Made by a program: the position numbers and the translations under genes. Under the pieces are notes generated by a model that made no database searches, had not been told where the DNA came from, and saw nothing but the letters and a program-made list of their open reading frames with translations. Positions 4,954 to 46,554 of a DNA stretch of 64,000 nt are shown piece by piece. This DNA is from Dehalococcoidia bacterium. Lineage in GTDB: Bacteria; Chloroflexota; Dehalococcoidia; Lucifugimonadales; CATOSD01. Location: contig OZ242014.1 of NCBI GenBank assembly GCA_965204815.1, forward strand, positions 1,512,532-1,576,531, written 5' to 3'. Position 1 is the stretch's first letter. Every line of letters starts with the position of its first letter.

Positions 4954-5844
4954 ATGTCGAGCAGCCCGCTGGAGCTGAACGCATACGCCAAGGTCAACCT
5001 GACCCTCGAGGCGCTGGGGCGGCGGGATGACGGCTATCACGACGTGGTCTCGATCATACAGACGGTGGACCTGTATGACACGCTTACGTTCGAGCGGGCA
5101 GACGGACTGGAGCTGGTATGCGACGCGCCGGAGCTTGCGGGGTGCGGAAACCTGGCGTTGAGGGCCGCCCGGCTTCTGCGAGAGCACGCCGGCGTCTCGG
5201 ACGGCGCACGAATGACCATCGTCAAGCGCATCCCGGTCGCCGCCGGGCTGGGCGGCGGCAGCAGCGACGCGGCGGCCACGCTGGTGGCGCTCAACCGACT
5301 GTGGCGCCTTGACCTGTCGACAGGCGAGCTGTCCGCGCTGGCCGCGAGGCTAGGCTCCGACGTGCCCTTCCTGCTGCGGGGCGGCACGGCGATGGTGAGC
5401 GGGCGTGGGGAGCGCGTCGACCAGTTGCCGCCCGCCGACCTGGAGTGGTTGGTCGTCGCCTGCCCCGGGATACACGTGCCGGATAAGACGGCCTCCCTGT
5501 ACGCGAGGCTTGGGCCGTCCAACTTCACGCGCGGCGCGCTCACGCGCAGGCTGGCGGCGCGGATACGCGGCGGAGGAGACGTGCCACCACAGTTCCTGTT
5601 CAACGTGTTCGACGACGTGGCGTTCGACGCCTTTCCGGAGCTGCGCGACTGCTGGGACGCGATGCACGCGCTGGGCGCGCGGGAGGTGCACGTGGCGGGC
5701 AGCGGGCCGTCGCTGTTCGCGCCGGTGTCCAGCAGGGAGGTTGGCTCGGCGCTCCAGTTGCTCCTCACGCACCAGCACGGTATCGAATCTCACCTCGTCC
5801 GGACCGTGGCCGGCGACGCGGAGGGCGGCGAGTGTACGAGCTGA
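4954..5844 (+). CDS. ispE: 4-diphosphocytidyl-2-C-methyl-D-erythritol kinase
   Basis: AYAKVNLTLEALGRRDDGYH N-terminus and PVAAGLGGGSSDAAA GHMP-kinase motif. Confidence 0.9.
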   Translation: MSSSPLELNAYAKVNLTLEALGRRDDGYHDVVSIIQTVDLYDTLTFERADGLELVCDAPELAGCGNLALRAARLLREHAGVSDGARMTIVKRIPVAAGLGGGSSDAAATLVALNRLWRLDLSTGELSALAARLGSDVPFLLRGGTAMVSGRGERVDQLPPADLEWLVVACPGIHVPDKTASLYARLGPSNFTRGALTRRLAARIRGGGDVPPQFLFNVFDDVAFDAFPELRDCWDAMHALGAREVHVAGSGPSLFAPVSSREVGSALQLLLTHQHGIESHLVRTVAGDAEGGECTS

Positions 5845-6245
5845 TAGCGGGCATGACGCTGGGGATGCTGATGGCATCCGTGTTCATCTGCACGGTGGCG
5901 CTGATACTCTTCTTCATGATGAAGAGCGGCTCTCCGGCCGCCGGCCGCCTCATCGAGAACCGCAGCCCGACGATAGTGGGACTTGGAGCGGTCGCCGTGG
6001 CCTACCCAGCGTGGGCCGCGGTCGGCGGGCTGTGCGGCGTGCTGTACAGGATCAGCCTGGAGCAAGCGCCGGGCGGTGGACTGGGAAGCCCGAACTTGGT
6101 GTACACGCTCGGCGTCGCGGTGGCGGTGCTGCTGTTGGCCGCGCCACTCGCCGTGCTGCTGAGGCGCGCTGCCGCAGGCGTCGCCATCATAACGCTCGCC
6201 GCTATAGGCGTTTTCGGCTGGTTTCTGCCATACTATGCGGCGTGA
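5832..6245 (+). CDS. Small integral membrane protein, unknown function
   Basis: 137-aa ORF with about 4 hydrophobic segments. Overlaps the ispE stop by a few codons. Confidence 0.5.
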   Translation: MYELIAGMTLGMLMASVFICTVALILFFMMKSGSPAAGRLIENRSPTIVGLGAVAVAYPAWAAVGGLCGVLYRISLEQAPGGGLGSPNLVYTLGVAVAVLLLAAPLAVLLRRAAAGVAIITLAAIGVFGWFLPYYAA

Positions 6246-6605: not shown

Positions 6606-8207
6606 ATGCCGATAGACCCGCAGCGAGAGACGTGGAAGCCCGGCATGGACTGGGAGCACGCCATCGACGACATGGCCTATATTCGCGGCCTCGTGCGCGA
6701 GATGGGCGGGCCGGAACGGATCAAGCGCCAGCACGACGGCGGGCGCTACACGATCCGGGAGCGCATCGACAAGATGGTCGATCCCGGCAGCTTCGTGGAG
6801 GCCGGCCCGATGGTGGGCGCCGCGGAGTACGACGAGGACGGTAACCTGTGCGCGTTTACGCCGGGGGCCTACGTGATGGGTCTCGCGGAGATCGACGGCC
6901 GCCCGGTGGCAATCGGCGGCGACGACTTCACAATTTCGGGCGGCAGTCCCCACAACGTGCGAAAGAGCTCGGGCCACTTCACGCAGCCGCTGGCGCTCCA
7001 GTACGGCATACCCTACGTCCAGCTCGTGGAGGGCGTGGGCCACAGCTCCAAGTCCGACGAGGCCGCGGGACACATGGGTCTTCCCGGCGGGGAGCTGTGG
7101 TGGCGCTCGGTGGAATTGCTGCGCAAGGTCCCGGTGGCGGCGGGTGTCATGGGGTCGGTGGCGGGAGCGCCCGCGGCGTTCGCGCTGATGTCGCACTTCA
7201 CCGTGATGATCCGGGAGCAGTCCCAGATATTCCCGTCCGGGCCGCCAGTGGTGCGGCGCGCTATTGGCGAGACGCTGGACAAGGAGGAGCTTGGCGGCTA
7301 TCAGATGCACGTCCACGAGAGCGGCCAGGTGGACAACGTGGCGGACTCGGAGGAGGAGGCGTTCGAGCAGATCAAGAAGTTCATCTCGTATCTGCCCAAC
7401 ACCACCGCCGACGTCGCCCCGCGCGTCGAGACGGGAGACCCGCCGGACCGCCGCCCCGAGGAGCTTCTGAACATCATCCCGCCCAACCGGCGGCGCAGCT
7501 ACGACGCGCGCAAGCTCATCCGGTTGGTGGTGGACAACGGCGAGTTCTTCGAGATGCGGAAGCACTGGGCTGGCGCGATCATCACCGGGTTCGCCAGGCT
7601 GGACGGCTACAGCGTGGGCGTGATGGCGAGCGATCCGCTCAAGTTGGCGGGCGCGATGGACGGCTGGGCGGCGGAGAAGTACACGCACTTCGTGGACCTG
7701 TGCGACGCCTTCAACCTGCCGGTGGTGGTGTTCCTGGACATGCCGGGCTTCATGCTCGGCTCGCACGCGGAGCGCAAGGCGACCATGCGGCGCGGCGTGC
7801 GCGCGCTGATAGCGAGCGCCGAGGCGAACGTTCCGAAGGTGGAGTTCAACGTCCGCAAGGCCTACGGAGTCGCGGCGGACGCCATCCACAGCCTGGGCCA
7901 GCCCAACGGCCTCAACCTCCGGTACGGCTGGCCTGCGGGCGAGTGGGGCGGCATCCCCATCGAGGGCGGCGTAGCCGCGGCGTACCGGCGGGAGATCGAG
8001 GCCGCGCCGGACCCGGACGCGCACCGGGAGATGATCGAGAACCGGCTGCTCCGGCTGCGCTCGCCGTTCCGGGCGGCGCACAAGGGCGACGTGGTAGACC
8101 TGATCGACCCGCGCGAGACGCGGCGGCTGGCGTGCACGTTCGTGAAGCTGGCCCAGCCGATGCTTCACAAGCTGGCGCAGCTACCCAAGCGCGCGGTGCG
8201 GCCGTAG
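6606..8207 (+). CDS. Acyl-CoA carboxyltransferase (propionyl-CoA carboxylase beta / methylmalonyl-CoA decarboxylase alpha family)
   Basis: 533 aa with two carboxyltransferase half-domains (GGDDFTISGGS..., FLDMPGFMLG). Lies immediately downstream of the biotin carrier gene. Confidence 0.85.
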   Translation: MPIDPQRETWKPGMDWEHAIDDMAYIRGLVREMGGPERIKRQHDGGRYTIRERIDKMVDPGSFVEAGPMVGAAEYDEDGNLCAFTPGAYVMGLAEIDGRPVAIGGDDFTISGGSPHNVRKSSGHFTQPLALQYGIPYVQLVEGVGHSSKSDEAAGHMGLPGGELWWRSVELLRKVPVAAGVMGSVAGAPAAFALMSHFTVMIREQSQIFPSGPPVVRRAIGETLDKEELGGYQMHVHESGQVDNVADSEEEAFEQIKKFISYLPNTTADVAPRVETGDPPDRRPEELLNIIPPNRRRSYDARKLIRLVVDNGEFFEMRKHWAGAIITGFARLDGYSVGVMASDPLKLAGAMDGWAAEKYTHFVDLCDAFNLPVVVFLDMPGFMLGSHAERKATMRRGVRALIASAEANVPKVEFNVRKAYGVAADAIHSLGQPNGLNLRYGWPAGEWGGIPIEGGVAAAYRREIEAAPDPDAHREMIENRLLRLRSPFRAAHKGDVVDLIDPRETRRLACTFVKLAQPMLHKLAQLPKRAVRP

Positions 8208-8313
8208 GTGTGGGGAACCGCCAGTCATTTCTGTAGATGATGGAGTCCATCCAATGGGGACGAAGGCCTCACTCCGTTGGCGCGTCGCCCTTGTAGGAGT
8301 TGCGCGGAAACGA

Positions 8314-8328
8314 GCCTGTGTCAGATTA
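8314..8328. repeat. 15-nt arm GCCTGTGTCAGATTA; perfect inverted partner at 8919-8933
   Basis: Read directly: 8314-8328 GCCTGTGTCAGATTA and 8919-8933 TAATCTGACACAGGC. CGCGGAAAC lies adjacent to each arm. Confidence 0.6.
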
Positions 8329-36567: not shown

Positions 36568-37833
36568 ATGCCGGTTCGCTTACCTAGACTCCGGGACGTC
36601 CGTCTCTTCGAGGGAATAGACCCTCGCGACCTCGTCTGGGTGTCGGCGATGTCGCTGATGCTCTCTGTGCTGCTGTTGCCGTTCGCCAGCTACGTCGCCG
36701 CGCTTCCCTTCATCCAGGACGAGTGGGGGATCAACAACACCCAGGCGGGCGTGGTGTTCTCCGCGTTCCAGGCGGGGTTCGCCGCCTCCGCGCTGCTGGT
36801 CATACCGCTCACGGACAGGTTGAGCTCCCGCCACATCCTGGTTGCGTCCGCGGCCACGTCCGCTGTCGGGAGCGCCCTCTTCCCGCTGGCCGCGCAGGAG
36901 GTCGTCAGCGCCTCGCTGCTGCGTGCGCTGTCGGGCGCCGGACTGGTCGGCGTCTACGTGCCGGGGCTGCGCGTCATCTCCGAGCGGTTCGCGGACAGCG
37001 GGCGTGGCATGGCTATGGGCCTGTACGTCACCGCATTCTATGCCGGAAACGGCGTCTCTCTGGTCGCCACGGGCTGGCTGCTGGAGTGGCTCGAGTGGAG
37101 GGACGCCTACCTCTGGCTGTCGCTGGCCTCGTTCGCCAGCCTGCCCCTCGCGTGGTTCCTGCTACGCGCTCCGCGGCCGGCCGCGGCGACCGGCTCGTCT
37201 GCGGGGCGGCTGGACGTGTCCGTGCTGCGCAATCGACGCTCCCGCGTCTACATCCTCGGCTACACGCTCCACGCGGCGGAACTATACATCGTGCGAGGCT
37301 GGCTGCCCGCCTTCCTGACGGCGGTACTGGTGATGAGAGGGATGGCGCACGATCAGGCGGTCACGACCGGCGCGGCGGTAGGCGGCATCGCCCTCGGCGT
37401 GGGCGCGCTCGGCCCTGTGATGGGCGGGATCATCTCCGACAGGCTGGGCCGGGCGGCGTCCGCGGCGGCCATCTTCGCCCTCAGCGGTGCGTGCTCATGG
37501 CTGATCGGTTGGATCGGCGGCTTCCCCTGGCCGCTCATCGTCGGCGTAGCGGTCGTGTACGGCTGGGCCATCGCCGCCGACTCCGCCATCTACACCACGG
37601 CTGTCACCGAGGTCGCCAAGCCGGAGCAACTCGGTTCCACCATGGCCGTGCAGTCGTTCCTGGGATTCATGGGCGGCGTCGTCGGCCCGATCCTCGCCGG
37701 CGGCGTGCTCGACCTCGCCCCGGCGTCCATCGAGTGGGGCGCCGCCTTCTCCGCCACCGGCGTCATCGCCATCGTCGCCGTGGCCGCGCTTGTGCGTGCG
37801 CGGGAGGGGCGCGCCAAGAGAACGAGAAAGTGA
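36568..37833 (+). CDS. MFS transporter
   Basis: 421 aa, about 12 hydrophobic segments. PLTDRLSSRHIL resembles the MFS loop 2-3 motif. Confidence 0.75.
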   Translation: MPVRLPRLRDVRLFEGIDPRDLVWVSAMSLMLSVLLLPFASYVAALPFIQDEWGINNTQAGVVFSAFQAGFAASALLVIPLTDRLSSRHILVASAATSAVGSALFPLAAQEVVSASLLRALSGAGLVGVYVPGLRVISERFADSGRGMAMGLYVTAFYAGNGVSLVATGWLLEWLEWRDAYLWLSLASFASLPLAWFLLRAPRPAAATGSSAGRLDVSVLRNRRSRVYILGYTLHAAELYIVRGWLPAFLTAVLVMRGMAHDQAVTTGAAVGGIALGVGALGPVMGGIISDRLGRAASAAAIFALSGACSWLIGWIGGFPWPLIVGVAVVYGWAIAADSAIYTTAVTEVAKPEQLGSTMAVQSFLGFMGGVVGPILAGGVLDLAPASIEWGAAFSATGVIAIVAVAALVRAREGRAKRTRK

Positions 37834-37865
37834 TGACTGAACGCTTCCGTTGGCATTGATTACAA

Positions 37866-37894
37866 TTGACAAATCTGGTCTAGGCCACTATATT
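37866..37894 (+). promoter_or_regulatory. Near-consensus sigma-70-type promoter at the left edge of island 3
   Basis: TTGACA (37866-37871), 17-nt spacer, TATATT (37889-37894). Confidence 0.45.
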
Positions 37895-37946
37895 GTGGTT
37901 ACGATACCAATGGTGTCGCAAGTGACTTGCTCCCGTTGGGAGATCT

Positions 37947-37971
37947 GAGGGGCCGAATAGGCCCCTCTTTT
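37947..37971 (+). terminator. Rho-independent-terminator-like hairpin between the promoter and the NYN gene
   Basis: GAGGGGCC (37947-37954) / GGCCCCTC (37960-37967), loop GAATA, followed by TTTTGTGTT. Confidence 0.45.
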
Positions 37972-37988
37972 GTGTTGGTGAAGTTTTC

Positions 37989-38750
37989 ATGCCATTGCGA
38001 ACAGTGATATTCATAGATGGTCAGAACTTTCGAAACAGCCTTCGCAGCTTTCGGTTCAGTTCCGACCCGCCACACCCGCAAACCCCCCAATACCAGCTTG
38101 AAGAATTGCACTTCGATTGGAGCAAGTTCTTCAAGGCGGTCATCGACAAATTTGACGAGAGCACGGGTTGGGAGCATCAACTGATCAGGGTCTATTGGTA
38201 CTTCGCAAGGGACATCAGCCCTTGGGAGGAACGAAGGGACTTGGCCCAGAGAGTGGTGGATAGGTATCATCTGGAAGTCGATGGACTTACTGTCCAAAAG
38301 GTGGTTGACCTAGCTCAAGAATGGTACCGCCGCGAAAGGTCATACTTCGAGTCCCTCAGGGAGAAGCGATTTGAAAATATTCAACGCGATGTGAATTTCC
38401 TGGAGTTCAAGTACGTCGGACAGTACGTCGTTCGTCCCTTCACTCCGTACCGCGGTGTAACATTGAGCGATGACGGAAAAATTCAATATCGTGGAAGACA
38501 ACAAGGCGAAAAGGGAGTTGATACCGGCATCGCCGTTGACATGATATCCAAAATGCCTTACTACGACACCGCCATCCTTATCAGTGGTGATTCAGACTTC
38601 ATACCAGTAGTCGGCTATCTGAAGGATAATCTCAAGTACGTTTACCAATTCTCATTGGCAAGCGGCGTGCCACCCTCAATCCGATACTTGTCCCCCTGGC
38701 TTAGAGGATTAGTAGATTGTTTCGAAGCGTTCACCGAATTGGAATTGTAG
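37989..38750 (+). CDS. NYN-domain (LabA/limkain-b1-type PIN-like) predicted ribonuclease
   Basis: VIFIDGQNFRNS, EKGVDTGIAVDM and AILISGDSDFIPVV are the three acidic NYN motifs; 253 aa. Confidence 0.8.
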   Translation: MPLRTVIFIDGQNFRNSLRSFRFSSDPPHPQTPQYQLEELHFDWSKFFKAVIDKFDESTGWEHQLIRVYWYFARDISPWEERRDLAQRVVDRYHLEVDGLTVQKVVDLAQEWYRRERSYFESLREKRFENIQRDVNFLEFKYVGQYVVRPFTPYRGVTLSDDGKIQYRGRQQGEKGVDTGIAVDMISKMPYYDTAILISGDSDFIPVVGYLKDNLKYVYQFSLASGVPPSIRYLSPWLRGLVDCFEAFTELEL

Positions 38751-38839
38751 ACTAGATTCCTCAATAAAGAGTCTGGAATACCCCGTCCGATACTCTCCGC
38801 GATTGATAGCAGAATCGTCCAACTTCAAAGTATGGCTAC

Positions 38840-39079
38840 ATGACAAGCAGAATGCTTGAACTACTGACCAGTTACTTGATGGACGACCTGGATCTTGTGT
38901 CGCTTGAAGACCTCGTGGTTCCTCTCGCGTGGGAAGAGGACGGTCCAGCGCAAGACGTCGTTGATCGGGTCGCCGCCGAGATAGCATTGGTCAAGGATGG
39001 CGCTTCCGACGAAACGATGTTCAGAGAGCGCATTGAAGAGATTATCGCGTCCTCTGCCGCGCCCGCTCGAAACGCCTGA
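38840..39079 (+). CDS. Small acidic hypothetical protein (79 aa)
   Basis: ORF only; Asp/Glu-rich with no recognisable motif. Lies between the two convergent RNase-like genes. Confidence 0.3.
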   Translation: MTSRMLELLTSYLMDDLDLVSLEDLVVPLAWEEDGPAQDVVDRVAAEIALVKDGASDETMFRERIEEIIASSAAPARNA

Positions 39080-39118
39080 ACAATCTCATAGCGTCCAGAC
39101 CGGAACCTGCCGAATAGC

Positions 39119-40753
39119 CTAGCGCCTGCCCCGCAGCTTGCGTCCGATGCGAGCGAATTCCGGCAACACGCCCTGCTGTCCGATTCCCAGGAATGTCCTG
39201 AAGCAGTCGGTGATTACCTCACTTGGTATTGTGCTACTGCTCTCGTGTTCGGCTGGGTTTCTACGGTCGGCAAGCTGCCTAAGCGCAATGGGCAAGGACT
39301 CGACCATGAACTTCTCATCAGCTTGCCCGAGACCTCTTGAAGTACAAAAGTCCAGGAAGAAGCTGTCCTCACAGACGTCAACGTAGTTCCGCACACTCGG
39401 GTAAGAGCCTAACCGGCGTTCGGCTACTTCGTCCTCGTAACCCTGAAACTCCGGATAGGCACTTTTGCTTCTAGCCAACGGTTGCCATATGAACTCGTAG
39501 CACATCTCCTCGGTTGCCCTGAGCAATTCGTTGAGAATGGACTCTCGACGCACTCTCTGGGTTGAGCTCCACGTGTTGTCAGCCGATATGAGCGCTTCCT
39601 GAGCGCGCGGAGGAACAGTCTCCCAACTGTTCCCGAAAAAGTAGGTCTTCAGCCGCCGTTTTGCAGCCTTTTCTTCATCTTTCGCCCTCAGTTTGACGTA
39701 TTCACTCTGGCTAAGCTGAGCACTCGCCCACGCATGAGCGCCATGCCAGTATTCGCTCCACGTTAGCGACCTGCCCTGCTCATCTGTGGTTTCTTCTTCG
39801 ACACCAGATACATTCCAGGATATGGCCAATTCCTTGCAATCCCGCGCGACCTGTGCCCAGCCGTCAGTAGAAGATGCGCTTGCCCTAACAAGCTCGAAGA
39901 CTGATTTTGACTCTTCCAACGAGACCTGCAGCCCCGTCAAGTGGTTTTCCAAGACAGGCCGCAACAATGATTCCACTGGGCCAATTGCTTCGAGGTCCTC
40001 CGCGTCATAACGTTCTCCCATAGGGATTGCATTGTGATTAACTGCCAACTCGTAGCAGATCATTGCCTCGGCAAGATAGTGAAGGGCCTCCACATACTCA
40101 CGATCGACTCTGCTTACCCGGCTTAACTCCACGAATGCGAGGGCGGAAACAGCCACCAGTGAGGTATCGAATGCGGGACTCTCATAGCCTAAGCTCACGC
40201 CCTGAACACCACCAAGTCGCTTCAGTGTGCGCTCGACCTTGAAGAGGCAGTCCTGAACCTCTTCAGACAACCCTTCACTTCGCTTGAGTCTGAATGCCCG
40301 CGCAGCAGCGATATGGAGGTAAGTCTTAAGCTCCTCTTCCCATCGGCCATCGCTGACATCAGGCTGGTAAGGCACACGATGTCGCCTTTCGAGATACTCA
40401 AGACATTCCAGCATCAGACGCTCTTGTTCTTCCGACAACTGTTCCGCTGGAAGCCTGCTAGTACGCCATCTCGGGCGTCCCATTCGGCGTTGTGATCTTG
40501 TTATCTGAGGAAAGTACTGACTCCAGAACAGTTCTAGAGCGTCATCAATTGGACTCCGACCTTTAATCTCGGACGACCATTCGACGCTCTCTACGAAAGG
40601 CCGTAGTCGAATCACGTCCAGACGAGAGTACCCCACTGCCACCAACTCTCCGCTAGATGCGTCCTCCGAGGGAGGATAATCAACGTCTGTCTCCCTGACC
40701 AACTGATTCCACTTGTCTCGAACGATTGCCAGTTCAGTGTCTTCGAATTCCAT
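39119..40753 (-). CDS. Large helical protein with C-terminal HEPN-like domain (R-N-x3-H motif)
   Basis: 544 aa. C-terminal LRQLADRRNPAEHESS contains RNPAEH, matching the HEPN Rx4-6H signature with Asn after Arg. The rest is unassigned. Confidence 0.55.
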   Translation of the reverse strand: MEFEDTELAIVRDKWNQLVRETDVDYPPSEDASSGELVAVGYSRLDVIRLRPFVESVEWSSEIKGRSPIDDALELFWSQYFPQITRSQRRMGRPRWRTSRLPAEQLSEEQERLMLECLEYLERRHRVPYQPDVSDGRWEEELKTYLHIAAARAFRLKRSEGLSEEVQDCLFKVERTLKRLGGVQGVSLGYESPAFDTSLVAVSALAFVELSRVSRVDREYVEALHYLAEAMICYELAVNHNAIPMGERYDAEDLEAIGPVESLLRPVLENHLTGLQVSLEESKSVFELVRASASSTDGWAQVARDCKELAISWNVSGVEEETTDEQGRSLTWSEYWHGAHAWASAQLSQSEYVKLRAKDEEKAAKRRLKTYFFGNSWETVPPRAQEALISADNTWSSTQRVRRESILNELLRATEEMCYEFIWQPLARSKSAYPEFQGYEDEVAERRLGSYPSVRNYVDVCEDSFFLDFCTSRGLGQADEKFMVESLPIALRQLADRRNPAEHESSSTIPSEVITDCFRTFLGIGQQGVLPEFARIGRKLRGRR

Positions 40754-40821
40754 TTTGCATTACCACGTTCCGATCAAGTACTTCGCCTTGATACATGCCA
40801 ATAGCCTCGGCCTTGCGATAC

Positions 40822-44182: not shown

Positions 44183-44656
44183 TCAGTCCTCGCGCTTTGG
44201 TACTAGGAAGCGGCGGCGCAGCGTGAGAATCTGCTCCTCGCGCTGGTTGTAGCCGCGGCTTTCGATGTACACGATGCCCCTGTCCGGCCGGCTGCGCGAC
44301 TCCCGCACCTCCAGCACCTCGCTCTCGGCGTAGATCGTGTCGTCGTGGAACACCGGCCCGAGATGCCGTATCTGCTCGTACTCCAGGTTGGCTATCGCCT
44401 TGCCGGACGTGTCCCGCACGCTCATGCCCACCACCAGGCTTATAACGTAGGCGCCGTCGACCAGTATCTTGCCGTGCTGGTGGTTCTGCTGCATGTGGTG
44501 TTCGTCGATGTGCAGCGGGTTGTGGTTCATCGTCAGCAGGGAGAACAGGTGGTTGTCGAACTCCGTCACCGTCTTGCCCGGCCAGTGCTTGAACACGTCG
44601 CCGACTTCGAAGTCTTCCAGGTATCTGCCGTAACTGTCGCGGCCGTCGTGAATCAT
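44183..44656 (-). CDS. MaoC-like (R)-specific enoyl-CoA hydratase/dehydratase
   Basis: 157 aa hot-dog fold pattern: FSLLTMNHNPLHIDE. Confidence 0.8.
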   Translation of the reverse strand: MIHDGRDSYGRYLEDFEVGDVFKHWPGKTVTEFDNHLFSLLTMNHNPLHIDEHHMQQNHQHGKILVDGAYVISLVVGMSVRDTSGKAIANLEYEQIRHLGPVFHDDTIYAESEVLEVRESRSRPDRGIVYIESRGYNQREEQILTLRRRFLVPKRED

Positions 44657-45111
44657 CGTGTTTCTACCTCATCCTGATCATCGGGATAGTTTCCCATCGC
44701 GCGCAGAGTCTCGATCAAGGTATCGCCGGGCTGGTCGGCGAGCAGTTGGAGTGCAGTCACATTTCGCGTCTCATGCCGCTCATCTTGTAGGATCACGTAA
44801 TCCAAGCCAACTTCTTTTACGCGGTAACTCTCCCGCTGCTTGGGCGCCGCGATTGGGAAGCCCCTCGCCTTGTGTGTGCGAAGCGTCTCGGATAGCGTCG
44901 TCCAATGTGTGTCCAGCTTAATCGCCACCTGCTCTAGCTCCGACATCTTGAGCCGTTTCGACGCGCTCAAGACCTCGATGCCGATTACTTGGTCTCTCTG
45001 GTTGAAGTCTATGAGAATGTCCTGGTCCACTTGCTTGGTCGTGACGGTGCCGCCGCTATGGGACAGACGGAGATAGACGGCGTCAGCCGCCGCGTCATAC
45101 GTGATTTTCAT
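44653..45111 (-). CDS. DUF2283-domain protein with C-terminal extension (putative antitoxin)
   Basis: MKITYDAAADAVYLRLS...VIGIEVLSASKRL. Its ATG overlaps the upstream stop as ATGA. Confidence 0.65.
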   Translation of the reverse strand: MKITYDAAADAVYLRLSHSGGTVTTKQVDQDILIDFNQRDQVIGIEVLSASKRLKMSELEQVAIKLDTHWTTLSETLRTHKARGFPIAAPKQRESYRVKEVGLDYVILQDERHETRNVTALQLLADQPGDTLIETLRAMGNYPDDQDEVETR

Positions 45112-45374
45112 GGCGAACTCTCCCATCGCCCGTATCTGGCTATGACTGTGACTATGACTTGAGAAATGCCATCTTCAGCGTATATCACTGTCACTTCTTT
45201 GTGCGGATACAACCCGCCGTCCTCTTCGTAACCTTCCGTGAACACACTACGTCGTCCCAATCGTGGTTGCCTTACTTGAACCTCGTCGCCGAACTTAAGA
45301 GTTTCAACGACTTCATACTCTGAGACTCCTCTTTCGGCCATCTGATCCCTGGCATGGATTGTAAACTTGACCAT
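45108..45374 (-). CDS. DUF4258-domain protein (putative toxin)
   Basis: MVKFTIHARDQMAERGVSEYEVVETL matches the DUF4258 N-terminal pattern. The start was chosen at the internal Met, because the longer ORF overlaps the acyl-CoA dehydrogenase gene. Confidence 0.65.
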   Translation of the reverse strand: MVKFTIHARDQMAERGVSEYEVVETLKFGDEVQVRQPRLGRRSVFTEGYEEDGGLYPHKEVTVIYAEDGISQVIVTVIARYGRWESSP

Positions 45375-45390
45375 CGACTGAGACACTGCC

Positions 45391-46554
45391 CTATATCTTA
45401 TACTTTTGCAGCAGCCGGCGCGCAATCACGAGCTTCTGGATTTCGTTGGTGCCCTCACCGATAATCATCAGCGGCGCGTCGCGGTAGTAGCGCTCCACAG
45501 GGAAGTCCTTGATGAATCCGTAGCCGCCGTGTATCCGCATCGCGTCCAGCGAGACCTGCTGGCATATCTCGCTGGCGTACAGCTTGGCCATGCCCGCCTC
45601 CAGGTCGATGCGCTCCTGGCCGGCGTCCTTCTTCGCGGCGGCGTCGTAAGTGAGCAGCCGGGCCGCCTGCACTTTCGTCGCCATGTCCGCCAGCATGAGC
45701 TGTATGGCCTGGTGCTCGGCGATGGGGACGCCGAACGTCTTGCGCTGCTGGGCGTAGCGGAGTGCGGCGTCGAGCGCGGCGTCGGCCACGCCCACCGCTC
45801 GCGCGGCGACATTGATGCGCCCCGTCTCCAGCGCTCCCATCACCTGCCGGAAGCCCTGCCCCTCGACATCGCCCACCAGGTTGTCCGCCCCAACGCGGCA
45901 GTCATCGAACACCAGCTCGCAGGACTCGATGCCGCGATAGCCCAGCTTGTCGAGGTGACGACCCACGCTGAAGCCGGTCGATGGCTTCTCGACCACAAAG
46001 CAGCTTATGCCGCGGTAGGCTGGCTCCGCCTCCGTGTCCGTCTTGGCCAGCACCGCGAAGGCGTTGCCGTTCTCCGCGTTCGTGATGAACATCTTGGAGC
46101 CGTTCAGCACGTACTCCTCTCCGTCCTTCACGGCGGTCGTGCGTATGCCCTGCACGTCGCTGCCGGCGTCCGGCTCCGTGAGACCGAGGCCGCCGCGAAT
46201 CTCACCCGACGCCATTCGCGGCAGGAACCTCCGCTTCTGCTCCTCCGTGCCGCCGTTGGCGACGACGTGCGCCAGCACGTGGTGCGTGCCGATAATGCCG
46301 CTGACGCTCATCCAACCCTTGCTCAGCTCCTCGAAGATCATGGCGAACGTGGTGTGATCCAGACCCATCCCGCCGTACTCTTCGGGGATGGTGATGCCGA
46401 ACAGCCCCATCTCGCGCATCGGCTCCACCAGCTCGTGCGGGTAGATGTCCTCGTTGTCGTACCTGTCCGCAATCGGATTGACCTCTCGCCGGACGAAGTC
46501 CCGCACCATGTTCACTATCTGGCCGCGGACTTCCGCAGAAGTGTTCGTGCTCAA
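45391..46554 (-). CDS. Acyl-CoA dehydrogenase
   Basis: 387 aa. GLTEPDAGSD, catalytic-base region YASE, C-terminal IGEGTNEIQ. Confidence 0.9.
   Translation of the reverse strand: MSTNTSAEVRGQIVNMVRDFVRREVNPIADRYDNEDIYPHELVEPMREMGLFGITIPEEYGGMGLDHTTFAMIFEELSKGWMSVSGIIGTHHVLAHVVANGGTEEQKRRFLPRMASGEIRGGLGLTEPDAGSDVQGIRTTAVKDGEEYVLNGSKMFITNAENGNAFAVLAKTDTEAEPAYRGISCFVVEKPSTGFSVGRHLDKLGYRGIESCELVFDDCRVGADNLVGDVEGQGFRQVMGALETGRINVAARAVGVADAALDAALRYAQQRKTFGVPIAEHQAIQLMLADMATKVQAARLLTYDAAAKKDAGQERIDLEAGMAKLYASEICQQVSLDAMRIHGGYGFIKDFPVERYYRDAPLMIIGEGTNEIQKLVIARRLLQKYKI

Follow-up and report, generated by a model that had tools for sequence, protein, structure and literature searches.

A composite interval between an MFS transporter gene and tyrS in Dehalococcoidia: a recombination-swapped gene with a candidate HEPN-type domain beside an unrelated NYN unit and a lineage-specific acidic gene

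The window (the whole 64,000-nt stretch of the Dehalococcoidia contig OZ242014.1 that was analysed) contains a GC-poor interval of three genes, flanked by the 3′ ends of an MFS transporter gene on the + strand and of tyrS on the − strand. Within this interval the GC content drops from ~0.70 to 0.49–0.56, and the GC content at third codon positions (GC3) is 0.58–0.61 versus 0.89 for MFS and tyrS, in keeping with the AT-richer interval described in an earlier interpretation of the DNA letters (hereafter the sequence-only reading). The three open reading frames (ORFs) recognized in that reading are all confirmed: a gene for a 253-aa NYN/LabA-type protein (NYN; 37989–38750, + strand; Pfam PF01936), a gene for a 79-aa strongly acidic protein (small; 38840–39079, + strand) and a gene for a 544-aa protein (big; 39119–40753, − strand). 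The sequence-only reading took the three for a single horizontally acquired cassette. Comparison with other loci, labelled L001–L104, shows instead that three independent units with different histories make up the interval. Of these, big is a hypervariable, recombination-swapped member of an unnamed family with two modules. The fuller reading of this composite, in which big acts as a sensor joined to a HEPN-like RNase, is given about even chances here.

The gene order argH-rpe-tyrS, big, small, a variable slot and MFS-DUF1697 recurs across 13 related Dehalococcoidia loci. Big and small are adjacent in 12 of these 13 syntenic loci, and big is present in every syntenic genome examined. As the same chromosomal site is occupied in many related genomes, big and small are not a recent insert in this genome. 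The variable slot (37815..38837) lies between the MFS end and the start of the small ORF and is filled here by the NYN unit. DNA homology between the window and L008, its closest relative without NYN, ends at 37814 and restarts at 38838, indicating that NYN occupies a precisely bounded slot. At other loci the same slot is empty or holds a DUF7387 gene (PF24113), an ORF of ~106 aa, or both of these ORFs. No direct or inverted repeats flank the NYN insertion as the mark of a mobile element, no integrase or mobile-element signature was found at the locus, and Rfam gave no match anywhere across the interval. The MFS-tyrS gap is a recombination-prone site that is conserved in one Dehalococcoidia lineage.

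Big diverges out of step with its surroundings (rho 0.02 and −0.22 for big versus flank divergence). Between L010 and L014, tyrS is 99%, rpe 100% and MFS 98% identical, versus 41% for the N-terminal module of big (bigN) and 75% for its C-terminal module (bigC). Between L017 and L018, tyrS is 99%, MFS 98% and small 100% identical, versus 54% for bigC and 45% for bigN. The same is seen between L103 and L104 (MFS 99.5% versus bigC 54% and bigN 42%), which, together with L102, were reached through a cluster look-up after the first 19 big/small loci. For L017/L018 and L014/L010, the tyrS stop codon is where DNA identity of 96–99.9% breaks off or returns, and the 68-bp tyrS-big spacer (40754..40821) thus forms the tyrS-side boundary of the swapped segment; at the other breakpoint of swapped pairs, identity returns either inside the 3′ end of big or shortly beyond it. 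Synonymous divergence (dS) between L010 and L014 is 0.006 for tyrS versus 1.27 for big, a ~200-fold difference, indicating that the big alleles are old lineages that are exchanged by recombination. The window allele of big most resembles the allele of L007, whose flanks are the most distant of all the genomes. Fast evolution of big in situ was considered and rejected in favor of allele replacement, because dS is raised ~200-fold as well and the breakpoints are sharp. The ratio of nonsynonymous to synonymous divergence (dN/dS) of big is ~0.13–0.32, a range that is approximate as dS is saturated, and it indicates a functional gene under purifying selection. Taken by itself, the pattern offers a clear case in nature of alleles that are maintained at one fixed locus in a balancing or frequency-dependent way.

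At 90% identity the big family falls into 42 clusters, and at 50% identity it has 338 representatives; its genome matches are to Dehalococcoidia metagenome-assembled genomes (MAGs) in 11 of 11 cases, and in each of the 11 loci tested its GC content is below that of the surroundings. The full-length protein of the window has no match in Pfam, PADLOC or NCBIfam at E ≤ 1, and PADLOC-DB v2 gave no consistent match over 83 family members either. An exact look-up of the window protein returned no record, and public sources name none of the three proteins. As had been supposed from the sequence, the 544-aa protein is mostly helical and carries RNPAEH near its C-terminus (residues 498–503); the AlphaFold model is almost wholly helical (predicted local distance difference test, pLDDT, 86; predicted template-modelling score, pTM, 0.80). 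The N module (39938..40753, − strand; residues 1–272) is TPR-like and helical and is the most divergent part of the protein, with 31–67% identity between alleles, diverging faster than the C module. The matches that point to TPR are weak: Pfam TPR_2 is found in 5/83 members (best E = 0.0026), the N module matches a designed CTPR protein in the PDB at E = 0.0034, and the top Foldseek matches of the full model are TPR or solenoid proteins at E ≥ 0.15. The C module (39122..39937, − strand; residues 273–544) is likewise helical, and a domain model of residues 325–544 reaches a pLDDT of 89. In one allele lineage (L003, L015, L016, L018 and L104) big is split in two ORFs, with the cut near window residue 272, giving modules of ~253 aa (N) and ~280 aa (C), the latter preceded by AGGAGG-N5-ATG with its ATG overlapping the upstream TGA (TGATG). 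The split junction lies at L003 ~6860–6885, L015/L016 ~7125–7150, L018 ~7110–7135 and L104 ~7110–7135, equivalent to window ~39938. That the split genes are pseudogenes was rejected, since the Shine-Dalgarno sequence and the TGATG junction are conserved and common to the five loci; the sequence of the junction indicates that the two ORFs are translationally coupled. Several loci add to the range of forms and settings of big. In L001, L009 and L012/L013 (big ± 2 kb), which represent one clade outside of the synteny, the order is Uma2, big, a protein of ~241–273 aa and Uma2, adjoining transposase fragments, and the protein between big and Uma2 has a weak DUF7114 match (E = 0.002). In L002 (8231–13093), big stands beside a 1620-aa protein of the composition DUF4011-SF1 helicase-MTES_1575 nuclease, and L009 and L011 keep only C-terminal fragments of the gene.

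HEPN domains span ~100–120 residues and have four core helices arranged as two hairpins, helices 2 and 3 being separated by an insert of low conservation. Their Rx4-6H motif sits where the end of helix 3 passes into a loop, with a polar residue (N, D or H) after the R, and helix 2 carries a conserved acidic residue close to the motif (PMC3710099). In the C module, RNPAEH (39245..39262, − strand) is an Rx4H motif with a polar residue after the R, located at the C-terminal end of helix 477–503. R498 is invariant and H503 is at least 90% conserved over 83 diverse members, down to ~20–25% identity, and N499 and E502 are consensus residues, so that the family motif, RNxAEH, agrees with that of HEPN domains. 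The helix stops at H503 in both predicted models and is followed by loop 504–510 and helix 511–522, as expected of a motif at a helix end. Ahead of the motif helix, residues 429–476 form a poorly conserved helical insert, and this is preceded by helix 405–428, the proposed HEPN helix 2, which contains E415 (codon 39509..39511, − strand), a residue that is at least 90% conserved in the alignment. The motif and the predicted secondary-structure topology of the C module fit a HEPN domain. Outside of the TPR families, sub-threshold matches recur in families of the HEPN superfamily; in Pfam these are DUF4145 (E 0.066–0.088, four members), DUF3644 (0.055), HepT-like_2 (0.078) and HEPN_Apea (0.026), and in PADLOC, Csm6 (E = 0.029). 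Family profiles compared with PDB sequences gave only weak TPR matches and noise. Where the sequence-only reading saw a textbook HEPN motif in RNPAEH, the conservation of R498 and H503 and the helix-end position of the motif bear it out, and the HEPN fold itself was not confirmed by Foldseek or Pfam. That the C module is a HEPN domain is, on motif and model, plausible but unproven, with the balance tilting slightly in its favor.

The only significant relative of big is the HP0729 family. The HP0729-like region (39161..39661, − strand; residues 365–531) corresponds to the C-terminal half of NCBIfam model NF041917, which is matched by 36/83 members of the big family (best E = 6.3e-7). These matches are collinear over the C-terminal ~170 residues, at profile positions 179–353 of 355; the C-terminal domain of the window protein matches at E = 0.2 and P0019 at E = 1.5e-4. 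The printed match scores, ~11–21 bits versus a cut-off of 250, are far from those of an equivalog, and the N-terminal modules of the two families differ. By these profile matches, big is a remote homolog of the C-terminal half of HP0729 and not a member of its family. HP0729 is listed among the highly divergent alleles of H. pylori and adjoins tilS, a tRNA-related gene (PMC3561388). The HEPN survey and a supplement to it (PMC3710099) mention neither HP0729 nor Helicobacter.

NYN passes the gathering threshold of Pfam PF01936 (E = 5e-13; 50.1 bits, cut-off 24.2), and its homologs form 192 clusters of mostly ~283 aa. As claimed from the sequence, its acidic motifs are intact (FIDGQN, residues 8–13; GVD, 176–178; SGDSDF, 199–204), and D10, D178, D201 and D203 are invariant catalytic columns among the homologs, but the ORF ends at a premature in-frame TAG (38748..38750, + strand; codon 254). 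This TAG stands in place of a conserved Leu codon, as intact 284-aa orthologs in L102/L103 read ELEL-L-TQFL at this position. The conserved tail of 30 aa is still encoded past the TAG as an in-frame relic (38751..38843, + strand) that aligns with the tails of homologs and whose TGA end overlaps the ATG of small (ATGA); without it the window protein is shorter than the full-length form of the subfamily. The L104 ortholog has a separate stop at codon 192 (L104:5685–5687), ahead of SGDSDF. Nonsense mutations are thus found, independently, in 2/4 slot copies of NYN, which suggests that the slot copies are decaying under relaxed selection, with sequencing error not fully excluded. Among LabA/NYN nucleases (PF01936; PADLOC NYN and HEC-09), NYN is typical in keeping all catalytic acidic motifs and differs in belonging to a subfamily that is solitary among housekeeping genes and, in the window, in its truncation by a nonsense codon; the match to PADLOC NYN/HEC-09 is at the domain level only (E ~1e-6 over 36–50 residues). 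The subfamily is GC-poor versus its host wherever checked (GC 0.43–0.49 versus 0.59–0.63; GC3 0.42–0.58), even amid housekeeping genes, and this includes the copy of the window and those at L020:6001–6849 and L021:6001–6852. This persistently atypical composition parallels that of the big family.

The NYN leader region (37866–37988 in the window; L020:5830–6000; L021:5860–6000; L102–L104:4980–5111; and upstream of NYN in L022–L065) begins with a promoter-like site (37866..37894, + strand; TTGACA-17-TATATT), which has 11/12 matches in a consensus scan and whose −35 box is invariant in L020 and L021, in other genomic contexts, and in L102–L104. Downstream lies a small hairpin (37930..37942, + strand; CTCCC-GTT-GGGAG), kept with sequence variation in the closer NYN loci, and then a GC-rich, terminator-like hairpin (37947..37977, + strand; GAGGGGCC-GAATA-GGCCCCTC) that runs into a U tract and lies ~20 nt ahead of the NYN start. 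Of 34 NYN loci, 85% have a hairpin of ≤ −12 kcal/mol within 8–27 nt ahead of the start codon, versus 13% of background windows. RNAalifold, applied to a plain MAFFT alignment of 29 leaders, finds 7 pairs with compensatory changes in 7/7; 88% of alignment cells are paired versus 69% in shuffles, and there are 44 double-change cells versus 15 (in both cases 0/500 shuffles reach the observed value), with slid registers scoring lower, though unrelated terminators that are aligned together would likewise seem to covary. At L020 the gene upstream of NYN is transcribed divergently and the hairpin is nonetheless present, so that it cannot there be the terminator of a neighbor. The hairpin is tied to the NYN unit by its constant place ahead of the start codon, by the conserved promoter that precedes it and by its persistence beside a divergent gene. 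It could function in attenuation, in autoregulation as a target of the nuclease, or in stabilization; it matches no Rfam family, and no report of the leader motif was found in the searchable literature. NYN is thus an autonomous unit, consisting of promoter, structured leader and coding sequence, of a solitary, GC-poor LabA/NYN subfamily.

The product of small is as strongly acidic as had been noted (pI 4.05; 18 acidic and 6 basic residues). Differences among nine loci fall at codon position 3 far more often (1110) than at positions 1 and 2 (560 and 397), showing that the ORF is truly coding, and its dN/dS is 0.14–0.45. Homologs form 30 clusters of 63–100% identity that are restricted to the syntenic lineage. 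The start of small overlaps the upstream gene on the same strand, be it MFS, DUF7387 or the NYN relic frame, which suggests that it is co-transcribed with that gene. No significant match was found in Pfam, PADLOC, NCBIfam or the PDB. A resemblance to acyl carrier proteins (DLDxxSLEDL) was set aside as a weak lead only, since the profile match to PDB 2qnw, which hints at circular permutation, is not significant (E = 0.095) and the Ser is not always conserved. Small, a gene confined to this lineage, evolves in step with the genome background and is not a cognate partner of big.

Big most likely serves defence or another genetic conflict. The neighbors of its non-syntenic members, including Uma2 genes, transposases, small genes of toxin-antitoxin-like or DUF2283 type and the DUF4011-helicase-MTES_1575 nuclease gene, fit a mobile or defence setting. 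TPR-fused HEPN families are on record (LA2681 and C6orf70/DUF4209; PMC3710099), and with these and the other HEPN RNases that act in conflicts as single proteins (AbiD/F, AbiV, ApeA; PMC3710099), big shares the Rx4H motif, its site at a helix end and the upstream acidic residue, the poorly conserved insert, a C-terminal all-helical domain, a TPR-like N-terminal part, and its nature as a solitary gene with rapid turnover. It differs from them in lacking a significant profile or fold match and in being fixed beside tyrS and not in a restriction-modification or defence island. In the proposed mechanism, the TPR-like N module would recognize a variable trigger, such as a phage or other foreign component. 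The C module would then act as a HEPN-type, metal-independent RNase in which R498, N499 and H503, together with E415, cleave RNA on activation. The active form would probably be a dimer, as in other HEPN enzymes, and the outcome could be that of a single-gene abortive-infection or toxin-like effector that has no dedicated antitoxin. In defence hotspots, alternative genes are exchanged between conserved core genes. The interval resembles such loci in its fixed core flanks, sharp breakpoints, atypical GC, anciently diverged alleles and adjoining variable slot, but here the alternatives are alleles of one gene family and not different systems. The sequence-only reading had proposed a defence or conflict module; big, being hypervariable, swapped between strains and conflict-like, sustains that part of the proposal, and NYN is not its partner. 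A more specific form of this idea, which we put forward as a speculation and consider unlikely as it stands, is that big represents an NTPase-free Dehalococcoidia immune family, with a hypervariable TPR-like sensor and a divergent HEPN-type RNase of shared ancestry with HP0729, either joined or translationally coupled, kept as anciently diverged alleles that strains trade by homologous recombination at one fixed site beside tyrS, as a polymorphic single-locus immunity gene and not a system island. If the assignment is true, an unannotated family (338 clusters at 50% identity, without Pfam, PADLOC or NCBIfam membership) joins the HEPN-type conflict proteins, and the HP0729 family obtains its first functional lead. 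Dehalococcoidia are hard to cultivate, and to our knowledge almost none of their defence biology has been characterized.

Several points weigh against big being a sensor-RNase of this kind. Foldseek searches of the full model against the PDB and of the C-domain model against the PDB and BFVD gave nothing significant (best E 0.15 and 0.79), and the sole HEPN protein listed is Csm6 (5yjc) at E = 5. No HEPN family is significant in Pfam, NCBIfam or PADLOC, and the HP0729 family is itself uncharacterised. E415 is a putative partner of R498 and H503, proposed from its conservation and its helix position in the predicted structure. A toxic RNase would have to hold itself in check where no antitoxin is visible, and no means of doing so is apparent here. 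Relatives of big are absent from IMG/VR viral contigs, and at the syntenic loci its neighbors are housekeeping and not defence genes. The correlations over locus pairs are not phylogenetically independent, and many of the comparison loci are low-coverage MAG contigs, with the fragmentation of genes in L102/L103 possibly an assembly error. The missing fold and profile matches to HEPN families, the TPR-like, all-helical nature of the protein and the lack of a known activity for HP0729 all suit a helical scaffold or binding protein that is not a nuclease, with Arg and His used for binding or stability, and with hypervariability arising from some other balancing selection or from repeated horizontal replacement. 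We consider this unlikely, though it is the most serious of the alternatives, since the invariant R, polar N and H at a helix end, with an acidic residue upstream, are a specific HEPN signature and the recurring weak matches outside of TPR are concentrated in HEPN-superfamily families. A housekeeping RNA or tRNA factor tied to the argH-rpe-tyrS transcription unit is considerably harder to sustain. Big does follow tyrS on its strand at a distance of 68 bp, its distant relative HP0729 adjoins tilS, and no syntenic genome examined lacks it. A scan found no convincing terminator in the tyrS-big spacer or in the small-big spacer (39080..39118, 39 bp between convergent stop codons), and folding was not significant (z-scores 0.32 and −1.35 in the small-big spacer). 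As the 68-bp spacer has no recognizable terminator, read-through from tyrS is possible and big may be co-transcribed with it. Set against such a role are the ~200-fold excess in dS over tyrS between the near-identical L010 and L014, an allele phylogeny that is decoupled from the genome, the persistently atypical GC and the absence of any adjoining aminoacyl-tRNA synthetase or tRNA gene beside the non-syntenic members checked.

The sensor-RNase reading of big also has to be compared with readings in which its neighbors are its partners. The sequence-only reading combined NYN, the acidic ORF and the HEPN-motif protein into one RNA-targeting toxin/immunity or abortive-infection cassette, a proposal to which the comparative evidence now leaves very little room. 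The three genes do stand together at four loci (the window and L102–L104), the NYN frame read past its TAG overlaps the start of small, and all three are GC-poor. These four loci, however, represent one sub-lineage. A gene-neighborhood check revealed that the NYN and big families do not travel together: 0/80 NYN-related metagenome loci (386 kb) contain a relative of big or small (tblastn and family hidden Markov models), NYN is absent from 19/23 loci that bear relatives of big or small, and its nearest homologs outside of the sub-lineage are solitary genes among housekeeping genes. Between L102–L104 and the window, NYN is 89%, MFS 85% and tyrS 91–94% identical, versus only 38–58% for big. NYN thus diverges like the flanks while the adjoining big kept being replaced, which indicates a single entry of NYN into the slot and vertical inheritance since. 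The NYN stop and small start are 35 nt apart without overlap in L102–L104, two of the four slot copies of NYN bear nonsense mutations, and the promoter and leader travel with NYN to other genomic sites. NYN is a passenger, unrelated to big and in partial decay. The searchable literature yielded no described system in which NYN and HEPN are paired, and PADLOC-DB v2 has no defence system that matches big or small, and for NYN matches the domain only, so the view that the pair corresponds to no named system holds. Neighboring nuclease-type genes in a GC-poor patch do not necessarily make up a system, and here the two came to adjoin by chance. A smaller unit, in which small would be the antitoxin, immunity protein or inhibitor of big and the convergent pair would function together, is improbable, if less so than the three-gene cassette. 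The pair is adjacent at nearly all syntenic loci, small is as acidic as some nuclease inhibitors, and the stops, 39 bp apart without a terminator, would allow antisense coupling; overlap of the two convergent 3′ ends is possible. In having a candidate HEPN RNase beside a small gene, the arrangement resembles the HepT/MntA and RnlA/RnlB toxin-antitoxin pairs, but small is convergent with big and not operonic with it, is not a nucleotidyltransferase and is dispensable in many loci, with neither L007 nor any of the non-syntenic big loci having it, and its start overlap suggests co-transcription with the upstream gene instead. The two genes do not co-vary: small is identical in L017 and L018 while their big alleles share 45–54%, and its divergence follows that of MFS (rho 0.71) and not of bigC (−0.02) or bigN (−0.16) over 55 locus pairs, which are subject to the non-independence mentioned above. 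A type II toxin-antitoxin pair is thus not found in small and big, which are convergent and uncoupled in divergence, nor in NYN and small, which are likewise uncoupled.

Some smaller observations concern the slot and its surroundings. The conserved ~106-aa slot ORF (MSISPGQP...RIRLTVNDWLLCYAHQYVSASGAAITGPDPKWIRIDD...) is found head-to-head with small in 4 loci (L003 ~8000–8320; L008 ~1760–2075; L010 ~7830–8155; L019 ~5685–6010), has no Pfam match and is absent from the window. A second GC-poor stretch lies just past argH, at window ~44400–45400, with a GC content of 0.51–0.58 versus ~0.66–0.70 around it. In the slot of L019, the 3′ end of MFS is duplicated (L019:5001–5105 and 5562–5643; ~82 bp, 82% identical to the window), which looks like the footprint of an insertion or recombination event at the slot.

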